A DNA stretch of 25,589 nucleotides from Candidatus Falkowbacteria bacterium (GCA_017610485.1 JAFCBY010000034.1:1-25589); one strand, 5' to 3'; numbered from the stretch's first letter, positions 1,261-25,589 are shown. The notes: a model not told the origin generated them from the sequence alone. Numbers and translations: made by a program.

Positions 1261-3648
1261 TCACACAATTATGCCTGTCTTGGCACCGCATTCCCCACAC
1301 TCGCCGTCCTTTCCCAAGCCAAGAGACTTAGAGGCAAAGCCAGCCCTCTTGATCAGGACAGCGCCGCACTCCGGGCACTTCGTGGATTCCCCTTCCAAAA
1401 CATTGCCAACATACACATACTTGAGTCCGGCCTTTTTCGCAGCCCTCTTTGCCCTGTGCAATTTCTCAATTCCGGTCGGCGGCAAGTGGCTTAGCTTGTA
1501 CTGGGGCGAGAAGCGCGTGAAGTGCAAGGGAACAAGAGGGGAAAGGGATGCAACAAAGCTGCTGACATCCTCAAAGTCTTTCTGCTTATCATTGTACCCA
1601 GGCACAATCAGATTTGTCACTTCCAAATGAATTTTCTTTTTGTGCAAGTAGGCAATGTTTTCCTTGACAAAATTTATGTCTGCGTTTCCAACAATTTCCC
1701 TGTAGAATTTTACGTTCCCCTTGAGGTCAACGTTGATTGCGTCGAGGAAGGGCGCAATCTCATCAATGCATTCCAGCGTCATGTAACCATTACTGACCCA
1801 AACATTGTACAGGCCCTTCTTCCTCGCAAGCTTCATTGTCTCCAAAGCATACTCCGCAAAGATTGCTGGCTCAGTATAGGTGTATGCAATTCCCTCCACG
1901 CCAGTCGCAAGGGCCTGCTCAACAATTGCTTCGGGAGAGGTGAAAGGGACTTTGGCAATTGCCTCCTCACTGCGCTGCTGGCTCATGTTCCAATTCTGAC
2001 AATTTGCAACAGCAACAAAATTTGCTAAATAAGAGTGCTCTTTTTCAACTTCAAGATTGTAAACAGAACCCTCATAGAGAGACCTCTTTATCCAATTTAT
2101 GGGAAGCAAAAAATAATCCTCTTTTTCAATCGCCTTTTTGTTTTGGGTTTCTTTTTCGTGGTAATCTGTCTGTTCTAGGAATTTTTTTGGATTTGACACG
2201 GCTATTTTAACATAATAGAGGGTTGACTGAGAAACCGTTCTATCCTCTATCTTTTTAGTTTTAGGAGGCCTCCAAATGTAAAACCTTGGAATTTCTCCAA
2301 GATTCAGCATAAGGGCACAAAGTCCAAATGCCAAATTCTCTGAAACTGTATTCATACTAATAATGCGATTTCCTATCCAGCCATCGCCTGCAACATAGCC
2401 CCTCAAGAAGGCTTTTGTTGTTCTCTTATCTGCAGATATCAACTCAGGGGGAATAAATTTGCTTTTAGCATTATAACCAACAAGAGATTTGAACAAAATA
2501 GAAACTATTGAATTGCCGACTGTGAGATAGAGGCCTGTACGTTCAGTTTTAATACGAGAGGAAACACCAAAAATTTTTAACAAAAGTCTTTGAACTTCTT
2601 TTATGTATTTTAGTTCATGTTTCCCAAATGAAAAACGGGTATAATAAGAATTTGGCCTACTTTTCAAAGATGTAACAGAACCCTCTGCACAGTAATAGCC
2701 CAAAAGCTTTGCAAAATCCGAATCAAATTTTATAAATCGTTTTACCTCGTGTTTAGAGTGTTTGAACCTTATTTTTTTTTCTTTGATTTCAATGCCACCC
2801 CTATATTCAAATAGATGAGGAAAGCCATATTTTCTTATTTTTGAAATTAAGTACCTCAAATAAACTGGATGCATGTCAAATTTCTTTCCAAGTTCTCTGG
2901 AAGTTAAACCAGCAGAATAAAGTGAAAAGATTTCTTCGGCTTTTTTTGCATCATATTTCCAAGCATTTTTCTTGAACAATGTTGAATGCTGCTTGAAAAA
3001 CTCTGCCAAGTCAAGGGTCTTTTTTTGCTCTGAAAAAGTTTTTTTTGGAACAAGAAGCAAATCGCCTTCCTCTAATTCGACAGCAAGTCTAGTCGATATT
3101 TCTCCCGTAGGCTTTGCAACAAATATTTCGTGATTGGGAGTGCATCTAAAAGAAGGTAAATAAAACGGTTTTATTTCCAATAGCTCGCCATCATAAAAAT
3201 GCTCAAAGCCGTGGACAAGTTTGTAAAAGTCCGATGTGTGAGTAAGCACTTTAGAATGCTTAAATTTCCTAATACTAACATTTCCAAAGTTATCAAGGCC
3301 CTCAGCGGTATGGAAAAGCTCCCTTATAGGCCTAACACCGCTGCTTGAAAAGACCCTCGTTTCAGCTGGAAAGCAGTGCTTGCAGAAGAAGTTGCAGCCA
3401 AAGGTCGAAACTCCAAGGCACTGGGAGCCTGGCCTAAAGTGGTAAAGCGGCTTTTTTTCAATTGGGTCAACTGACATTGTCAAGGTTCGGCCAAAGACAA
3501 GGCTGTACAGTTTGCCGCCAACATTCTTGCGAACACCGCACTGGCCCCTTCCACCCTCAGCAATTGTACAGTTTCTCCTGCAAAGCCTGCATTTTACTTT
3601 CTTGTCCTCAAGTTTGCTGTAAAGCATTGCCTCATGCAGTTCAGGCAT
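1261..3648 (-). CDS. amrS: AmmeMemoRadiSam system radical SAM enzyme (PflA-like) containing an intein
   Basis: N-terminal CxxCxxxC...GxCGVR, DPIEKKPLYHF, GCNFFCKH|CQN motif, YTYTEP, NVDLKG, C-terminal CPECG...CGECG. Extein is 337 aa after removing the 458-aa intein. Confidence 0.93.
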   Translation of the reverse strand: MPELHEAMLYSKLEDKKVKCRLCRRNCTIAEGGRGQCGVRKNVGGKLYSLVFGRTLTMSVDPIEKKPLYHFRPGSQCLGVSTFGCNFFCKHCFPAETRVFSSSGVRPIRELFHTAEGLDNFGNVSIRKFKHSKVLTHTSDFYKLVHGFEHFYDGELLEIKPFYLPSFRCTPNHEIFVAKPTGEISTRLAVELEEGDLLLVPKKTFSEQKKTLDLAEFFKQHSTLFKKNAWKYDAKKAEEIFSLYSAGLTSRELGKKFDMHPVYLRYLISKIRKYGFPHLFEYRGGIEIKEKKIRFKHSKHEVKRFIKFDSDFAKLLGYYCAEGSVTSLKSRPNSYYTRFSFGKHELKYIKEVQRLLLKIFGVSSRIKTERTGLYLTVGNSIVSILFKSLVGYNAKSKFIPPELISADKRTTKAFLRGYVAGDGWIGNRIISMNTVSENLAFGLCALMLNLGEIPRFYIWRPPKTKKIEDRTVSQSTLYYVKIAVSNPKKFLEQTDYHEKETQNKKAIEKEDYFLLPINWIKRSLYEGSVYNLEVEKEHSYLANFVAVANCQNWNMSQQRSEEAIAKVPFTSPEAIVEQALATGVEGIAYTYTEPAIFAEYALETMKLARKKGLYNVWVSNGYMTLECIDEIAPFLDAINVDLKGNVKFYREIVGNADINFVKENIAYLHKKKIHLEVTNLIVPGYNDKQKDFEDVSSFVASLSPLVPLHFTRFSPQYKLSHLPPTGIEKLHRAKRAAKKAGLKYVYVGNVLEGESTKCPECGAVLIKRAGFASKSLGLGKDGECGECGAKTGIIV
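2002..3375 (-). mobile_element. Intein with LAGLIDADG homing endonuclease (458 aa) in amrS
   Basis: Starts CFPAETRV (block A); TPNHEIF (block B); LAGLIDADG-like motifs LLGYYCAEGS and FLRGYVAGDG; VYNLEVEKEHSYLANFVAVAN|C (blocks F/G). Visibly AT-richer than the flanks. Confidence 0.95.
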
Positions 3649-18462: not shown

Positions 18463-19504
18463 ATGGATAACTTGCTTGTAGTATGCGTTGACAGGGACAA
18501 CGACCTTGGCAAAAAGACAGGAATAAAGGGCCCTGTTATTGGGCGGGAAAAAAACCTTGAGGCCGCCTCCAAACTCGCCTTGGCTGACCCAGGGGAGTCA
18601 GATGGTAACAGACGGCTCGGAGGACGACCAGATAATCCCAATCCTGCAAAGCCATGCAAAGATAGTCTCAAAGGAAACCGTCATAATTAAGCAGGCGCAG
18701 CAAATTGAGTCAGCCTTCTTCACACTGAAGGAGGTCATAAAGGATCCCTATGTTGCAAGAATTGTTTTTGGAATTCCCGCCATTTTGCTTCTGCTCTTTG
18801 TTGCCGTTGGCACAATGTCCTTCCAGATAATTGCATTTGTTTTGGGCGTTTACCTCCTGCTAAAGGGCTTCGGACTGGAGGAGCCCATCCTGGACAGGTT
18901 CAGAAGCCTTGGAAACATCTCTGTCCAAAGAATAAGCTTTCCGTTCTACATAGGAAGCATTTTCGTAGGGGCCTTTGGCGTAATCACGGCCTACACTGAA
19001 TTTGCGAAAAGCCCGCTGACAGACCCGTTGCTGGACTCAGTTAGAATTGTGCAGGCCACCTACCTGTTCATTGCTTTGGCAGCCCTCATCGGAGTCGCTG
19101 GCAGGGGCATTGACGTGGTTCACCTGAAGAAAGCGTTTTTGCTGAGAAAATACATGCTTACTGGAATAAGCATTCTCCTCTTTTGGTGGATTCTGGATAC
19201 CGCAACCCTTGTTTTGCTGAGGGAGGTTGACCTAAACCTATTCCTTACAACCATCCTCGGAAGCTTCCTGGTCCTGCTCCTGGCCTTCAGGCTAAGCGAG
19301 GTCCTGGATGTGAGAGAAAAGGTAACAAGGCTGCTGGTGGGCCTCCCAATTTACACGATCGAGGGAACCTGGCTTGGCAGGGTTGAGGCAATCGACAAGA
19401 GAAAGAAAAGCATTACCTACCTGAACAGGAAGAACAGCAAGCCAATTGAAGTCGGAAAGAAGCGCTTCTCCCTGAGAAAGGGAAAGATAGTGCTAAGCGC
19501 CTGA
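18463..19504 (+). pseudogene. DUF373 family membrane protein with internal deletion/frameshift at ~18601
   Basis: [40 protein letters not shown] in one frame, then [16 protein letters not shown]...KQAQQIES in another; C-terminal PRC-barrel-like segment. Confidence 0.82.
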
Positions 19505-19545
19505 AGGGAAAACTGCTTAACGCAATTAAAAAAATTGGCTTGTTA

Positions 19546-19565
19546 GGAAACCTGTATTGGTTTCC
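19546..19565. terminator. Hairpin downstream of DUF373 (possible terminator)
   Basis: ggaaacc-tgtatt-ggtttcc, a perfect 7-bp stem. Confidence 0.3.
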
Positions 19566-19681
19566 GGCTTATTTGCTCTTCCAGTCTTACCCTAACCACT
19601 GCCAAAAAAAAGCCCAATCAACAACTATATATATACTAAAATAATCCCTCTAATAGTATATTCAATGCGGGAAAACTTTAA

Positions 19682-21280
19682 ATGGCCAAACTCGTTTGCT
19701 TGCTGATTCCATTCCTTGCAATATTCCTTGCAACACCAGCCTTTGCTCAAGCCTGCACCACAGACGCGGAATGCGAACCAAGAGGCCCGGGCTTTGAATG
19801 CAATGACTCAAGCCAATGCGAATGGATGCCGCCTATTGGAATTCCAAAACCGGAATTTGGAATTGAGGAAACATATAGAATGTATGATGTTGAAGCCAGC
19901 AGGAATTCCGGTTTGACTTACAACCCAAGCAGCCAAAGCGGCTTCTATACGCACTACGTCGACAACACCGCGCCAGGGGGATGCGATAATGGCAGTAACG
20001 GGACAGAGGCAAGCCCAAGATGCGAAATCCCAACCAGCCTGCCAGAGGGAAGCATAGTAGAAGTGCACGGCGGGCCCTACTCTGACCAGGACGGCATAGC
20101 CATTGATTCAAGCGGTACAAGCACACAGCCTGTCTTTGTGAGGGGAATTGGCAGACCGGCCGTCCTGCCGGGCGGCACAGGCGGATGGCAGAAAACGTTC
20201 AGCTTAAGAGGCAGCTACGCAATTGTTGAAAATTTTGAATTTGACGGAAGCAGGGTACGCATGACAGATCCCTCTTACCACCACCTGGCCATAAGAAATT
20301 CTGATGTGCACAGTGTAGACTCTACTGCAGTCGCCACGAATGGCCAGCACCTCGTCATATACAACAACGAAATTCATGACACAGGCAACTGGCAGGTTTA
20401 TGACCAGGATTATGACTACCACGGCATAAAGGTAAACGGCCAGAATGTCACAATAGTTGACAACAGCTTTTACCACCTTGCGGGCGACGGAATCCAGGTC
20501 AGCGGCGGCGACGGCGTTGTTGGGGAGGAGGACACCATTGACGTTGAAAACGTCTTTGTTGCAAGGAATTTGGGCTATGAGAATTCGCAGATACTCTTTG
20601 CATCAAAAACAGCAAGGAACGTTGTCTTTTCGCAGAACACAGTCTTCAACAATAGGGAAGATGACGTGCAGCACAGCGCAGGCGGACCCTTTGGCTACTG
20701 CCTTTTAAGCATGTTCAGGGCAAACAACATATGGTTTATCTTCAACACAGTCTACAACTGTGATACAGGCATTCTTGACTCAAGCAATTTGGGGCCAACC
20801 TATGCAATAGGCAACCTTATCCATGGCACAAATAGCGGCATTGGGCAGGTTGAGCACGCATACCAGAACACTGTTTTTAATTCTGGAAGAAGCTTTTTCA
20901 ACGTGGGAACTGAGGCAAACAATCTGGTTGCAAGCCCTGACGATGCAGGCCTTGACCAGCTTTTTGAAGATTTGGACGGCAACAACTTTAGATTGCAGGT
21001 AGGAAGCCCTGCAATAGATACAGGCAGCCAGCCCCAAAGCTTGGATGAAGTGCTCGACCTCTACGAGGCAACCTTTAGGGAAAGCATACGGCTTGACCTT
21101 GACAGAGTTGCAAGGCCGCAGGGAACGGAATGGGACCTAGGAGCATTTGAGTTCCAGAGCAGTTCCTGCGTTGACACAGACGCCCTTTTAGACTTCATCT
21201 CCCAATGGGCGCAGGGCAATATCACAATGCCAACACTCATTAGTAGAATAGCCGCCTGGAAAGCAGGAACAGGGTGCTAA
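19682..21280 (+). CDS. Secreted right-handed parallel beta-helix (pectin-lyase-like) protein
   Basis: Signal peptide; repeated I.NN.IH, DGIQ, N..Y.N motifs; choice-of-anchor-Q-like FRLQVGSPAIDTG...RPQG..WDLGAFE; short C-terminal helical module ending WKAGTGC. Confidence 0.8.
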   Translation: MAKLVCLLIPFLAIFLATPAFAQACTTDAECEPRGPGFECNDSSQCEWMPPIGIPKPEFGIEETYRMYDVEASRNSGLTYNPSSQSGFYTHYVDNTAPGGCDNGSNGTEASPRCEIPTSLPEGSIVEVHGGPYSDQDGIAIDSSGTSTQPVFVRGIGRPAVLPGGTGGWQKTFSLRGSYAIVENFEFDGSRVRMTDPSYHHLAIRNSDVHSVDSTAVATNGQHLVIYNNEIHDTGNWQVYDQDYDYHGIKVNGQNVTIVDNSFYHLAGDGIQVSGGDGVVGEEDTIDVENVFVARNLGYENSQILFASKTARNVVFSQNTVFNNREDDVQHSAGGPFGYCLLSMFRANNIWFIFNTVYNCDTGILDSSNLGPTYAIGNLIHGTNSGIGQVEHAYQNTVFNSGRSFFNVGTEANNLVASPDDAGLDQLFEDLDGNNFRLQVGSPAIDTGSQPQSLDEVLDLYEATFRESIRLDLDRVARPQGTEWDLGAFEFQSSSCVDTDALLDFISQWAQGNITMPTLISRIAAWKAGTGC

Positions 21281-21396
21281 AAAAAAGCAACCGACTCTGG
21301 TACAAAACTCAGTCATTCATGTGTTTGGCTGAGAAGTTGCGCAGGGTTGCCCTGCTGAATGCTGCTGTTATGATGCGTTCTACTAGTCGTTGTCTT

Positions 21397-21770
21397 ATGG
21401 CGCCAAACTTGCGTTTGTCTTTGGAAAAGGCATTAGAATACGTTGGCTTTGCAAAGAAAAACCTTGAAATGGACTTGTACGAAACTGCGATAATGCTTGC
21501 ATACAACCCATGTTTCATGCGGCAAGGGCAATTGCCTTCAAGGACGGCGTTGTCGAAAGAAGCCATTTTGCATTGATTAAATACTTGGTTGAAAAGCACG
21601 GCAAGGAACTGAACAAGGGAATGCTGAACAAGCTTGACTTTTACAGAAAAATAAGGCACTCTTTGAACTATGGGCTTGACAGCAAGGCCAACGAAGAGCA
21701 AGCGGAAAAGGCCATAGAGTTTGCGGAAAAGTTTCTTGAAGAGGCAACTGAATTCCTGGAGGGAGTGTGA
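21397..21770 (+). pseudogene. HEPN domain protein, frameshifted at ~21508 (5' end uncertain)
   Basis: SLEKALEYV..AKKNLE..LYE.AI..AYN in one frame continues as MFHAARA...ERSH...RKIRH..YG (Rx4-6H) in another. Confidence 0.78.
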
Positions 21771-22090
21771 GTAAAGGGTCAAACTTTTCTTGAATTGCAG
21801 TCTGTTTCCAAGCACTTTGGCGGAGTGCACGCCCTGTAAGACGTTTCCTTCAAGCTGAAGAAGGACAAGACTTTGGGATTGGTTGGGGGAAAACGGCTAT
21901 GGAAAGACAATTTTGCTGAATGCTATCACGAAAAGGGTTGAGCCTGACAGGGGCGAAATACAGTTTAAGGAAAAAAGGATTGGCAAACCGCCTGCGTACA
22001 GGATTGCAAGGCTTGGGGGTTGGAAGAATCTTCCAGTTTTGTTTGACGGGCCGTTTGCTGAATTGACTGCAAGGCCTTCGTCCTGCAATT
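21767..22090 (+). pseudogene. Degraded LivG/LivF-like ABC ATPase fragment
   Basis: Reconstructed FLELQSVSKHFGGVHAL*DVSF...LGLVGENGYGKT...EPDRGEIQF...RIARLGVGRIFQ, with an in-frame TAA (21837) and +1 shifts in homopolymer runs at ~21788, ~21888 and ~22018. Confidence 0.82.
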
Positions 22091-22187
22091 GGAAAATTGC
22101 CGGCATTGGAATCAACAAAAAGAGGGCCAGCCTCAATGCTGTCGCTTCCAAGGACCGCTGGCAAAGTCAAAGGGCGGGCTTAGGCGA

Positions 22188-23618
22188 CTAAGAAATCGCT
22201 TTTTTGGCGATGTCTGCCGAACTTGGCTTTGGCAAAAAGCTGAGGATCTTTTTCAAGGAGAGAAGAAGCTTGCTTGTCTTGTGGCCCTTGACAAAGGCGT
22301 GCTGCAAAACATCGTTCAGGGTGGAAACAGGAATAACCCTAATCTTCTTGAGCTCTGATTCAGGCAGTACAATGTCTGCCTGGTTTACCCTTGGGATGAC
22401 AACCTCCTTGAATCCGGCCTTGATTGCGGCCTGAATCTTGCTGCTCACACCCCCAATCGGCAAAACCTCACCCCTTACTGAAAGGGAACCGGTCATTGCA
22501 AGGCTTTGCTTTATCGGAATTTGCTCTGCCGCACTTATGACGGCAGTGGCAACGCTTACCGAAGCTGAATCTCCCTCAACGCCCTCGTAGGTCTGCAAAA
22601 ACTGGATGTGGAGGTCGTGCCTGCTCACGTCCTTTCCCGAAACCTTTTTGATCAAAGCGCTTACATTCTGCACGGCTTCCTTGGCAATCTCGCCCAGCTT
22701 TCCTGTCGCAATTATCCTGCCCTCGCTTCTGCTTGCAGCAGGAGCCATTTCAGCTTCAATAGGCAAAATCATTCCAGCTGAGCCGTCACTGCTTACTGCA
22801 AGGCCGTTGACCCTTCCAACAACGTTTCCCTCTGTAAGATAAACCTCATACTCTTTCTTCAAGTCAAGGAACTTGTCAACCATTTGCTGTTCAAGGGTTC
22901 TTGCAGAAAACTTGGCCTGGGTCAGGTCCTCCGGCTGGACCAAAGCATGGCCCTTTTCCTTTGCAATGTCCCCGGCAGCGCGAATCAGGCCGCCAAGGTC
23001 ACGAAGTTTCAAAGTAAGCCTGTTCTTTCTATCCGCGCGCCTTCTTGCCTCAAAGATTATTTGGTCAGCAGCCTCCTTTGTAAAATGCGGGATTTTCCCG
23101 TCCTTCTTGACCTCCTGGGCAATGAACTGGACAATCTTGGCCCTATTTGCCTCATTGTCAGGCATGTCAACATTCATATAAATCTCATAGCCATAGCCCC
23201 GAATCCTGCTTCTAAGTGCGGGGTGCACTTTTTTCAGGTCAGCGTAATTGCCGCTTGCAACAAGGACAAAGTCGCATGGAACAGGAGCAGTTCGGGTCAT
23301 GGCACCAGAGCTAAGCTCGCTTTGGCCAGTAATAGGATACTTTTTTTCTTGCATTGCAGTCAAGAGCTCCTGCTGTGCTTTTTGGGTTAGGGTGGCAATC
23401 TCGTCCAGGAAAAGGACGCCGCCGGAAGCCCTGTGAATCATTCCAGGCTCAACCCTTAAATGTGCGGGCGTACCAAGGCCGCCCGAGTTGTGAACCAGGA
23501 TATCCTCGACAAAGAGGTTGCCTGTCTCTGTTGTCACGTTGTAGACATAGCCCTTGAACGGCCTTGTGGAAACGGAGGAAACCCTTTGGGAAAGGGCTTT
23601 GAAATTCTTTTCTTCCAT
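22188..23618 (-). CDS. lonB: Split LonB protease, C-terminal half, preceded by a 44-aa C-intein (IntC)
   Basis: After HN: [15 protein letters not shown], Walker [18 protein letters not shown], protease domain with EGDSAS (Ser) and [10 protein letters not shown] (Lys). Confidence 0.95.
23487..23618 (-). other. C-terminal half of split intein (IntC, 44 aa)
   Basis: [23 protein letters not shown]|S gives blocks F and G with the canonical His-Asn terminus and Ser+1. Confidence 0.93.
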
Positions 23619-23640
23619 TAAGGAGACTAATGTTGGAAAT

Positions 23641-23660
23641 GCTTTAAATGCTTTGGCTTT
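23641..23660 (-). promoter_or_regulatory. BRE/TATA-like promoter for IntC-lonC (leaderless)
   Basis: Minus strand reads AAAGCCAAAG CATTTAAAGC; TTTAAA lies 25-30 nt upstream of ATG 23618. Confidence 0.55.
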
Positions 23661-23700
23661 GGTTAGGCGATGATGAGGTTAGCATCCAAAAATTAAGGAA

Positions 23701-24804
23701 TTAGAAACCAAAATCATAGCCTTTTAGATTCAGCTCTTTTATTATTTGGAGCATTTCCTTTTGAATGCTTTTGTTGACTGGCACACCCTTGTCTTTCCTT
23801 TCAAGCCATGCAAGGTACTCTTTCTCGCCAGCAGTGTAAATTCTCTCCTGGTTAGGCATTTTCTTTGCAGCCCTCAAGTCCCTTAGGATGTCACCGGCCC
23901 TCTTTTTGAAGTCTTCAAGAACAGTGAAAGCGGAAACATCAATGGCTATAAAGAAGTGCCCCACATTTACACCGGTTATGTTCTTGAGAAATGCCGCTCC
24001 GGAAAGAGCAGCTGAAAGAATCTCCACAACCGTACAATAACCATAACCCTTGTGGCCACCAGTGCCCTCCCCGATTCCGCCCAAGGGAAGCAAGCTTGCA
24101 TTTCCCTTTAACATTTCCTCAAGAATTTCATCCGGGTTTGTCATTGAATTCCCATCCGAACCAACAACAAGGCCCTTTGGCACCCTTTTGCTGGCCCTGG
24201 CAGCTATCTCAACCGTACCTCTTTGAATTATTGGGGTTGCACAGTCCAAAACAAAAGGAAAATCTTCATCAGTTGGCATGCCAAACGAAAGTGGGTTGGT
24301 TCCCAACATGTTTTCTGCACCAAATGTTGGTGCAACTGCAGGGCGTGCACTTGTTCCGGAAATACCAATCATTCCCAGATCAGCTGCCATCATCGCATAA
24401 TAACCCGCTATCCCGTAATGGGTTGAGTTTCTTACAGCAACCATTCCCATGCCATACCCTTTGGCCTTTTCAATTGCAAGCTGCATTGATTTTTTCGAAA
24501 CCACCATGCCCATCCCAGTGTGGCAATCAACAACAGCGGTTGTAGGGCTTTCTTTGACAATTTCAAACTTGGTTACAGGCTTCTGCATGCCATTCCTAAT
24601 CCGGTCATAATAAATCGGTTTGAGGCGGCTTATCCCATGGGAGTCAATTCCCCTCTTATCTGCAGTAATTAAAACCTCAGCGCATGCTTTTGCATCCTCT
24701 TCCGGCACGCCCACTGCCTTAAACACATCCGCCATAAAGCGCTCCATTAAGTCGAAATCAACCCAGGCACAGTCTTCATACAGTGCAGCCTCCTTTGAAG
24801 ACAT
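23701..24804 (-). CDS. Ldh_2 family NAD(P)-dependent oxidoreductase (malate/L-lactate/sulfolactate dehydrogenase-like)
   Basis: ADKRGIDSHG, VAVRNSTHYG.AGYY, GTNPLSFG.P, LDCAT, GGHKGYG, GHFFIAID, YTAGEKE. Confidence 0.95.
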   Translation of the reverse strand: MSSKEAALYEDCAWVDFDLMERFMADVFKAVGVPEEDAKACAEVLITADKRGIDSHGISRLKPIYYDRIRNGMQKPVTKFEIVKESPTTAVVDCHTGMGMVVSKKSMQLAIEKAKGYGMGMVAVRNSTHYGIAGYYAMMAADLGMIGISGTSARPAVAPTFGAENMLGTNPLSFGMPTDEDFPFVLDCATPIIQRGTVEIAARASKRVPKGLVVGSDGNSMTNPDEILEEMLKGNASLLPLGGIGEGTGGHKGYGYCTVVEILSAALSGAAFLKNITGVNVGHFFIAIDVSAFTVLEDFKKRAGDILRDLRAAKKMPNQERIYTAGEKEYLAWLERKDKGVPVNKSIQKEMLQIIKELNLKGYDFGF

Positions 24805-24829
24805 CGTAGAATAGATATCTAAAAAAACA

Positions 24830-24837
24830 TTTATTAA
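24830..24837 (-). promoter_or_regulatory. TATA-like box for the Ldh_2 gene
   Basis: TTAATAAA lies 26-33 nt upstream of ATG 24804. Confidence 0.5.
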
Positions 24838-24895
24838 CCATTGACCTTGGATTAAGCGTGCAATGGCTTAAACCGAACAGCACACAAGCCGTAGG

Positions 24896-24914
24896 AAAAA
24901 ATTCCAATATTGGA
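24896..24914 (-). terminator. Candidate terminator after lonN-IntN
   Basis: Perfect palindrome tccaatattgga (24903-24914) followed on the minus strand by a T6 run (24896-24901). Confidence 0.4.
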
Positions 24915-24928
24915 GGTGGTGAGGCTTT

Positions 24929-25589
24929 TTAGCCGAAAACCTTTGCAAGCTCAAGCTTGGCTATTTTAATTAGCTCGTCGCCTTTGGAAAGCTTTTCAGC
25001 TTCCCTGTCGCCTTTCTTAGTTATGACACTGTGCTCAGGAGTCAAAGTAACCTTTGATTCGCCAACAGAGACCTCAACCACTTCGTCATCGTAAGGCCTT
25101 CTGTTCATTGAATAGATTCTTGACTTGACAATCTCTTTCTTGTCATTAACACCGTAAACAAAGACTGCTTCTTCTCTTGGGAAAACCATTGCCTCATAGC
25201 CTTCATCGTGCTTTTCCACCAATTTAGGATATTTCAAGGACATTTCTTTCCATAAGTTTTCAAAAGAAATCTTTCCCTCAACACCATCACGACAAACAAC
25301 AAAGCTTGATTCGACAAAACTTTGAAGCGGGTCATGTCTAACGTCCCCGAGAAGCGCACCAGCCCTTGCCCCGGTCGCCTCGAGGAATGGGGCGGTCTTC
25401 TTTGTGGCGTTGTCAATCAGGAGCTTTGGCGTATGTTTTGTTCCACGTGGCTTCATCTGCATTCCGAGGCCGAATGCAACCATCAGCAGCCCGTTTAGGA
25501 GAAGCAGTGCTGCAAAGATTACGTCAGAGTAAAAGCCCATCTGCCACAGGATTAATGACAGGAAGAACAGGCCAAGCGGAAGAAGAAAG
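24929..25589 (-). CDS. lonB: Split LonB protease, N-terminal half (5' partial), ending in a 130-aa N-intein (IntN)
   Basis: Frame is open to the window edge; two TM helices (LonB membrane anchor), PKLLIDNA...APFLEATGARAGALLGDVRHDPLQ, then intein sequence and TAA. Confidence 0.93.
   Translation of the reverse strand, partial: FLLPLGLFFLSLILWQMGFYSDVIFAALLLLNGLLMVAFGLGMQMKPRGTKHTPKLLIDNATKKTAPFLEATGARAGALLGDVRHDPLQSFVESSFVVCRDGVEGKISFENLWKEMSLKYPKLVEKHDEGYEAMVFPREEAVFVYGVNDKKEIVKSRIYSMNRRPYDDEVVEVSVGESKVTLTPEHSVITKKGDREAEKLSKGDELIKIAKLELAKVFG
24932..25321 (-). other. N-terminal half of split intein (IntN, 130 aa)
   Basis: SFVESSFVV (block A, Ser1), VTLTPEHSVIT (block B TxxH), EAEKLSKGDELI (typical end of the N-terminal HINT segment), then stop. 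Confidence 0.88.

Follow-up and report, generated by a model that had tools for sequence, protein, structure and literature searches.

The lonB locus and its two half-genes

The stretch examined here, contig JAFCBY010000034.1 (C7), makes up the entire 25,589-bp window and belongs to a genome bin of 1.25 Mb in 155 contigs (88% complete) from a small archaeon of the phylum Iainarchaeota (Diapherotrites), a DPANN group. At the right end of the contig, the minus strand carries three genes in head-to-tail order: the N-terminal half of the gene for the protease LonB, fused to the N-part of an intein (IntN); a gene for an Ldh_2-family 2-hydroxyacid dehydrogenase; and the C-part of the intein (IntC), fused to the remainder of LonB. 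A preliminary description of the window had recognized that LonB is broken at HDPLQ/SGGLGTPAH into two open reading frames (ORFs) on the same strand, and the ORFs are as it described them; its account of the layout needs one correction, as the halves are not adjacent and the complete Ldh_2 gene between them (23701-24804) went unmentioned.

The first gene, LonN-IntN (24929..25588), is open at its 5' end and reads GDVRHDPLQ, then SFVESSFVVCRDG, followed further on by TLTPEH and, at the end, AKVFG and the stop codon. The portion of the LonB N-extein on the contig (25322..25589) contains a transmembrane segment, terminates with GDVRHDPLQ and covers positions 113-196 of the LonB model. It is followed by the 130 residues of IntN (24932..25321), with Ser1, block A (SFVESSFVVCRDG) and block B (TLTPEH), the stop codon occupying 24929-24931. 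The third gene, IntC-LonC (476 residues, 22188..23618), starts at its own ATG at 23618 with the 44 residues of IntC (23487..23618), which include blocks F and G and end in LVHN; the 432-residue C-extein and its stop codon (22188..23486) then supply Ser+1 (SGGLGTPAH), Walker B, the AAA+ lid and the Lon_C domain with the Ser-Lys dyad. Reading of the two ORFs agrees with the preliminary description in all of these elements, from the 130-residue IntN with block A, TPEH and the stop at 24929 to the 44-residue IntC, Ser+1, Walker B and the catalytic dyad.

The N-half extends beyond the window onto contig C40, which shares a 33-nt overlap with the last bases of C7 and supplies the start codon, the first ~120 residues and Walker A (GLPGTGKS), the motif that the preliminary description had expected off-window in this half; the complete N-half has 339 residues, and a related metagenome contig, L061, aligns across the C7/C40 join without a gap, in support of the join by synteny. 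The C-half carries Walker B (VLFLDE) at residues 68-73, the GDSAS serine, a LonB_AAA-LID domain and Lon_C (Pfam 2.6e-35), and on its own scores 639.7 bits against the NCBIfam LonB model TIGR00764, for which the cut-off is 516.6. Over the whole genome, the three pieces cover the model at positions 5-115 (C40), 113-196 and 167-605 (C7), each once, with neighboring pieces overlapping briefly at their boundaries. Walker A and Walker B reside on separate polypeptides. The best relative of the LonB family in the PDB is LonB of T. onnurineus (3k1j).

In another genome of the genus (G004), LonB lacks the intein and runs uninterrupted over the site as GDVRHDPLQSGGLGTP, which means that the exteins abut exactly at the break and that removal of the 130 and 44 residues would restore a normal LonB. 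A search with the LonB model found no second LonB in this 88% complete genome, in answer to the question, raised by the preliminary description, of whether an intact lon gene exists elsewhere in it. A Lon_C-like gene on contig C112 was considered as a second Lon and rejected, being a 799-residue membrane protein without an ATPase.

Intein signature and signs of use

IntN begins with Ser1 directly after HDPLQ, at a position that is Ser in eight relatives and Cys in five, and its block B contains the Thr-x-x-His motif, with T94, P95, E96 and H97 invariant among 11 IntN sequences. IntC is nearly invariant over 13 genomes and ends in LVHN followed by SGG; the terminal HN is kept in 12 of 13 relatives, and Ser+1 is conserved. 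In one genome, G039, IntC ends in LVSN, with the penultimate His replaced. The closest solved structure to IntN by sequence profile is the Mja KlbA intein (2jmz; E 6.3e-07 over 83 positions including block B), a one-piece mini-intein of a different host protein to which the similarity is remote; the profile also matches the NrdJ-1 split intein weakly. The end of IntN coincides with the start of the LAGLIDADG domain in the one-piece intein of a related genome (G038), so that the break lies between blocks B and F, as first described, and precisely where one-piece homologues carry their endonuclease. The endonuclease insertion point is the usual breakpoint of split inteins. On the evidence as a whole, which supports the interpretation given in the preliminary description, we estimate a probability of roughly 85% that the element is a natural split, class-1-type mini-intein at the HDPLQ/SGG site of the sole LonB, and that trans-splicing rebuilds the protease.

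The two intein halves appear to be maintained. Compared with the two nearest genomes, the ratio of non-synonymous to synonymous substitution rates (dN/dS) is 0.11-0.16 for IntN, 0.10-0.14 for IntC and 0.05-0.12 for the exteins (0.05-0.10 for the C-extein), the ratios being rough because dS to these genomes amounts to 0.75-1.2 in the intein and exceeds that in the exteins. Judged by these values, both intein halves are under purifying selection; the preliminary description had named relaxed selection, with dN/dS near 1, as a result that would speak against it, and the halves give 0.10-0.16 instead. Upstream of the C-half, a TATA-like box lies 22-26 nt (mostly 24) before the ATG in all 11 genomes examined, which represent several families, and at 24 nt here (ATTTAAA, 23643-23649). 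This spacing suggests a separate promoter for the C-half and a leaderless or short-leader transcript.

Several observations weigh against the trans-splicing reading. The Pfam intein model PF14890 scores both halves below its cut-off of 35.8 bits (16.9 for the N-half and 13.4 for the C-half), and the NCBIfam model TIGR01445 gives 24.2 bits on the N-half of G005, with a cut-off of 24.5, whereas one-piece homologues pass curated intein profiles with 56.8 and 100.4 bits. The low scores can be attributed to the models, which expect one chain and penalize half a domain, and the intein assignment is therefore based on the motifs, the alignment to one-piece homologues and the profile match to a solved intein; of the check with intein profiles proposed in the preliminary description, the Pfam part turned out negative, while motifs and one-piece homologues support an intein. 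Furthermore, IntC of this genome alone has Tyr in place of His just before VYNV (codon 23, 23550-23552), a position occupied by His in the other split sequences compared, including the nearest one (91%), and by Pro in the one-piece intein of G038. In block F, the residues that we take to be the characteristic Asp and His, on the basis of a hand alignment to the Mtu RecA intein, are both Asn in the split sequences. To these points are added the roughness of the dN/dS ratios, the genome completeness of 88%, which leaves room for a second LonB, the fact that the junctions of the Ldh_2 gene on C7 come from the assembly, and the predicted nature of the trans-splicing of LonB, for which the evidence comes from sequence and model.

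The block F residues bear on a different function of the halves, in which IntN and IntC would form a non-covalent docking pair and LonB would work as a two-chain enzyme without ligation. To estimate binding, we modeled IntN and IntC, each with a few extein residues; the predicted complex scored 0.86, compared to 0.00 for the best control, and the mark of 0.86 was reached by 55 of 80 solved complexes and by 3 of 110 mismatched pairs. The two intein halves are thus predicted to associate, and binding of this strength would suit docking, as would the presumed Asn-Asn pair in block F. Docking also has a precedent: a broken phage ribonucleotide reductase is reported to be assembled by a docking domain derived from a mobile element (PMC3045599). 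A docking pair would not need Ser or Cys at position 1, the block B Thr and His, the terminal Asn or Ser+1, all of which are kept in all compared N-part and C-part sequences from many families, and the AAA+ hexamer would probably be disturbed by a 174-residue HINT domain left in the fold between the two Walker motifs. The one-piece intein of G038 by the same hand alignment presumably has Asn at the block F Asp position and Thr at the His position, and interrupts the sole LonB gene matched in that genome, which is a single contig of 99% completeness; a working LonB there requires the intein to splice despite these residues. Considering all this, we regard docking without ligation as unlikely and trans-splicing as the preferred function of the halves.

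Replacement of the endonuclease module and distribution of the split

In related genomes, the N-half is followed by a free-standing ORF of 340-400 residues with two LAGLIDADG motifs and no Pfam match. Such a gene lies between the halves in L061, G005, G006, G013, G021 and G033, and is frameshifted in G003. A second Lon intein has an endonuclease domain with which this ORF shares 25-31% identity, and the ORF also matches an intein-containing RtcB model in its endonuclease part; similarity to the endonuclease domain of the one-piece intein in G038 was not detectable by BLASTP or profile. The nearest relative found, L061, has an N-half that is 91% identical to that of the present genome and the gene order RNase Z-like, N-half, endonuclease, 85-residue ORF, C-half.

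DNA homology to L061 ends 78 nt past the N-half stop, at 24851, and restarts 70 nt before the ATG of the C-half, at 23688; between these breakpoints, L061 has 1625 bp with the endonuclease gene, whereas the present genome has a cassette of its own of 1162 bp (23689..24850) with the Ldh_2 gene. The 78-nt flank on the N-half side (24851..24928) is common to relatives and contains an oligo-T run and the left arm of a palindromic element resembling a miniature inverted-repeat transposable element (MITE); the left breakpoint falls at the apex of this ~165-nt palindrome, of which only the left arm remains here. The complete element lies just past the N-half stop in relatives, in L061 at 2158-2345 with a fold z of -8.55, and its inner ~60-nt hairpin occurs on at least four other contigs of the present genome (C144:9570-9690, C17:12880-13000, C119:1335-1455 and C51:20965-21085). 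On the other side, homology to both L061 and G005 restarts with the upstream region of the C-half (23619..23688). A search for endonuclease remnants in both intergenic spacers of the locus was negative, and no Rfam family was found within 21500-25589 of C7.

The Ldh_2 gene in the cassette (23701..24804; 367 residues, Pfam 8e-121) is complete and keeps ~40 nt of its own upstream sequence, including the TATA-like TTAATAAA; the same ~40 nt are found with an 81%-identical orthologue adjoining TrkH in another organism. Its relatives at 81% and 78% identity occupy ordinary contexts and not the space between Lon halves, and neither four genomes of the genus nor G015 yielded the gene when searched. 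NCBIfam models match it below cut-off only, so that the dehydrogenase class stays at the family level and no substrate is assigned. According to these comparisons, the Ldh_2 cassette has replaced the LAGLIDADG module in this genome, which represents a later stage in which the split is fixed.

The placement of the dehydrogenase gene could also result from a chimeric contig that sets Ldh_2 between two Lon fragments. The bin is a metagenome assembly of 155 contigs, C7 ends inside the N-half, Ldh_2 between the halves is seen in no other genome, and no sequencing run with this organism was located for a read check; a read search of one marine metagenome returned distant relatives only (85-95% identity, short pieces) and was uninformative on C7. 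Such an artefact would, however, require a pair of misjoins leading back to the same locus with orientation preserved, and it would have to produce an insert consisting of a single gene with ~40 nt of its own upstream sequence and a GC content like that of its flanks (0.46 compared to 0.46 and 0.50). The split itself occurs in many independent assemblies, leaving only the Ldh_2 placement unique to C7. We consider a chimera highly improbable, the least probable of the explanations weighed here.

A foreign gene inside an intein, together with loss of the homing endonuclease, would also be expected if an insertion had broken a former one-piece intein and left a dead lonB with unused halves; the His-to-Tyr substitution in IntC, unique to this genome, fits such decay. 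However, both ORFs are intact and of full length, dN/dS is 0.05-0.16 over the exteins and the intein halves, the stop, the start and the upstream box are common to about 45 genomes, and no other LonB was found that could take over. A dead gene therefore appears very unlikely, and a split intein in use remains the preferred reading.

To determine how widely the split occurs, we scanned 215 Iainarchaeota/Diapherotrites genomes and counted the matches listed by hand, with 54 weaker matches standing outside the count. Among the matches listed, an IntC-headed ORF too short to include an N-half is present in about 45 of the 215 genomes, in about 20 families; the frames measure 463-665 residues, apart from four shorter ones, two or three of which lie at contig ends. 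Seven genomes have an intein at the HDPLQ/SGG site in one frame of 857-1158 residues, and the remaining genomes of the phylum have no intein at the site, again among the matches listed. Within the genus, three of the six other genomes have the split (G003, G005 and G006); it is also present in G013, G015, G021 and G022 of the same family and in further families (G031, G033, G034, G039 and others), which answers the question of its conservation posed by the preliminary description. In public protein data, 189 clusters of LonN+IntN proteins of 330-380 residues are annotated only as 'ATP-binding protein [Candidatus Diapherotrites archaeon]' or 'Lon-like protease'.

Most genomes examined keep the two halves linked on a single strand and separated by other genes. 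The halves are on different contigs in G015, probably owing to a contig break, and in G039, where other genes lie beside each half and there is no endonuclease. The Ser1 and Cys1 types of IntN do not track family assignments, and the dN of IntN is 0.64 for G013, of the same family as the present genome, and 0.37 for G031, of another family, the exteins showing the opposite order. The Ser1/Cys1 pattern and the patchy presence within genera suggest horizontal spread of the intein.

The scan and the neighborhood of the locus yielded further observations. G122 shows matches of both the split and the one-piece type (contigs C43 and C44), which could reflect two strains or contamination, and the intein in an 857-residue frame of G096 (C80) would fit a one-piece mini-intein without an endonuclease. 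The G005 record (L060, JAFCCG010000016.1) is titled 'Chloroflexi bacterium' despite an archaeal LonB and a split intein common to a Candidatus Iainarchaeum record, and the label is probably wrong. A second Lon intein, ~70 residues into the C-extein, is also divided over two ORFs in G031 (L049 1481-1485) and G023 (L050 5075-5078), the stop and start codons overlapping by 1 and 4 nt, respectively, and the endonuclease and helix-turn-helix domains staying on the first ORF, so that LonB of these two genomes comes in three pieces. The N-half of G023 (L050 1-2268) additionally has a one-piece LAGLIDADG intein in the Walker A loop (GLPGTGK/C), which brings lonB of G023 to three inteins, one cis and two split. 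Contig C7 itself encodes, at 1261-3648 on the minus strand, a 795-residue radical-SAM protein with a one-piece intein (Pfam Intein_splicing 3.5e-11, LAGLIDADG_3 9e-15); a canonical intein and the split one thus share the contig. The C-half of relatives directly adjoins, at its end, a convergently oriented DUF373 gene (Pfam 1.8e-84 in G005); in the present genome, this gene is found at 18539-19501, 2.7 kb from the C-half, with a beta-helix protein, an 86-residue HEPN ORF and a 102-residue ABC-ATPase fragment in the region between (18539-22191). This displacement is a second local rearrangement next to lonB in this genome.

Proposed assembly of LonB and relation to known systems

In the mechanism that we propose, a membrane-anchored N-half (Walker A, transmembrane segment and IntN) and a soluble C-half (IntC, Walker B, lid and protease) would be made from separate genes, probably under separate promoters. 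IntN and IntC would fold jointly into one HINT domain, in which Ser1, the block B Thr and His, the terminal His-Asn and Ser+1 would perform protein trans-splicing. Both intein pieces would be released, leaving a normal LonB chain that reads HDPLQSGGLGTP over the junction. As Ser1 and Ser+1 are used, the splicing chemistry should not depend on cysteine. The ancestor of the locus was probably a three-gene 'fractured gene' comprising LonN-IntN, a free-standing LAGLIDADG endonuclease and IntC-LonC, a layout that is kept in the nearest relatives; in this genome, the endonuclease module was swapped for an Ldh_2 gene carrying its own upstream region. With the endonuclease module lost, the element can no longer home by itself and the split is fixed.

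Natural split inteins as such are known. In the two-gene inteins of Nanoarchaeum equitans PolB and cyanobacterial DnaE, the break falls at the point of endonuclease insertion; a long N-part pairs with a short C-part, and trans-splicing rebuilds an essential enzyme. The LonB element resembles them in the break point and in the long N-part and short C-part (130 and 44 residues), and differs in that its host is a protease rather than a polymerase and that the halves are mostly linked on one strand with genes between them. 'Fractured genes' are described by Dassa et al. (2009, NAR 37:2560, PMC2677866) for DNA synthesis and repair enzymes, mainly of phage. The likeness is that a split intein at a single locus divides the coding region of a conserved enzyme. 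Relatives keep a free-standing endonuclease between the halves, as fractured genes do, whereas the present genome has Ldh_2 in its place; moreover, the host is a cellular archaeal protease and the endonuclease of the relatives is of the LAGLIDADG type, and PMC2677866 mentions neither Lon nor protease, LAGLIDADG or archaea. The unusual feature of the present locus is that the endonuclease is replaced by a metabolic gene.

One-piece Lon inteins have been described in Pyrococcus (Pab Lon and Pfu Lon; PMC3906313), and ten LonB inteins in Euryarchaeota (Novikova et al. 2016, PMC4760082). These have the same host protein, and seven genomes of the present phylum have one-piece inteins at the exact HDPLQ/SGG site, with ends that align with IntN and IntC. 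They differ in being single polypeptides that splice in cis and have, or formerly had, an internal endonuclease domain, whereas the locus described here is split. A literature search of open-access papers and preprints found no split Lon or LonB intein and no report linking split inteins to LonB of DPANN archaea. Contrary to the uniqueness implied by the preliminary description, the element belongs to the large family of 189 N-half protein clusters noted above.

Only a few families of natural split inteins are known, and they form the basis of widely used protein-ligation tools. The present family resides in a housekeeping protease instead of a DNA enzyme and is widespread in a DPANN phylum. 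For annotation, it means that an intact Lon can be erroneously recorded as missing from such genomes. Related genomes hold one-piece, three-gene, broken-endonuclease and unlinked states, to which the present genome adds a replaced endonuclease; with several intein states in one gene family, the 'gene-breaking' model of split-intein origin put forward in 2009 becomes testable there.

A further, tentative suggestion, which we hold to be doubtful, is that the gap in the split intein serves as a slot able to take up cellular genes. A host dehydrogenase with its own promoter would have been fixed there after loss of the endonuclease, and the intein would have ceased to be a selfish mobile element and become an immobile step on which assembly of the sole LonB depends. 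If so, the joining of a membrane-anchored and a soluble half could control when and where LonB is made, and the family would display every stage of split-intein origin and fixation, from the one-piece intein and the three-gene arrangement to the decayed endonuclease, the replaced endonuclease and unlinked halves.

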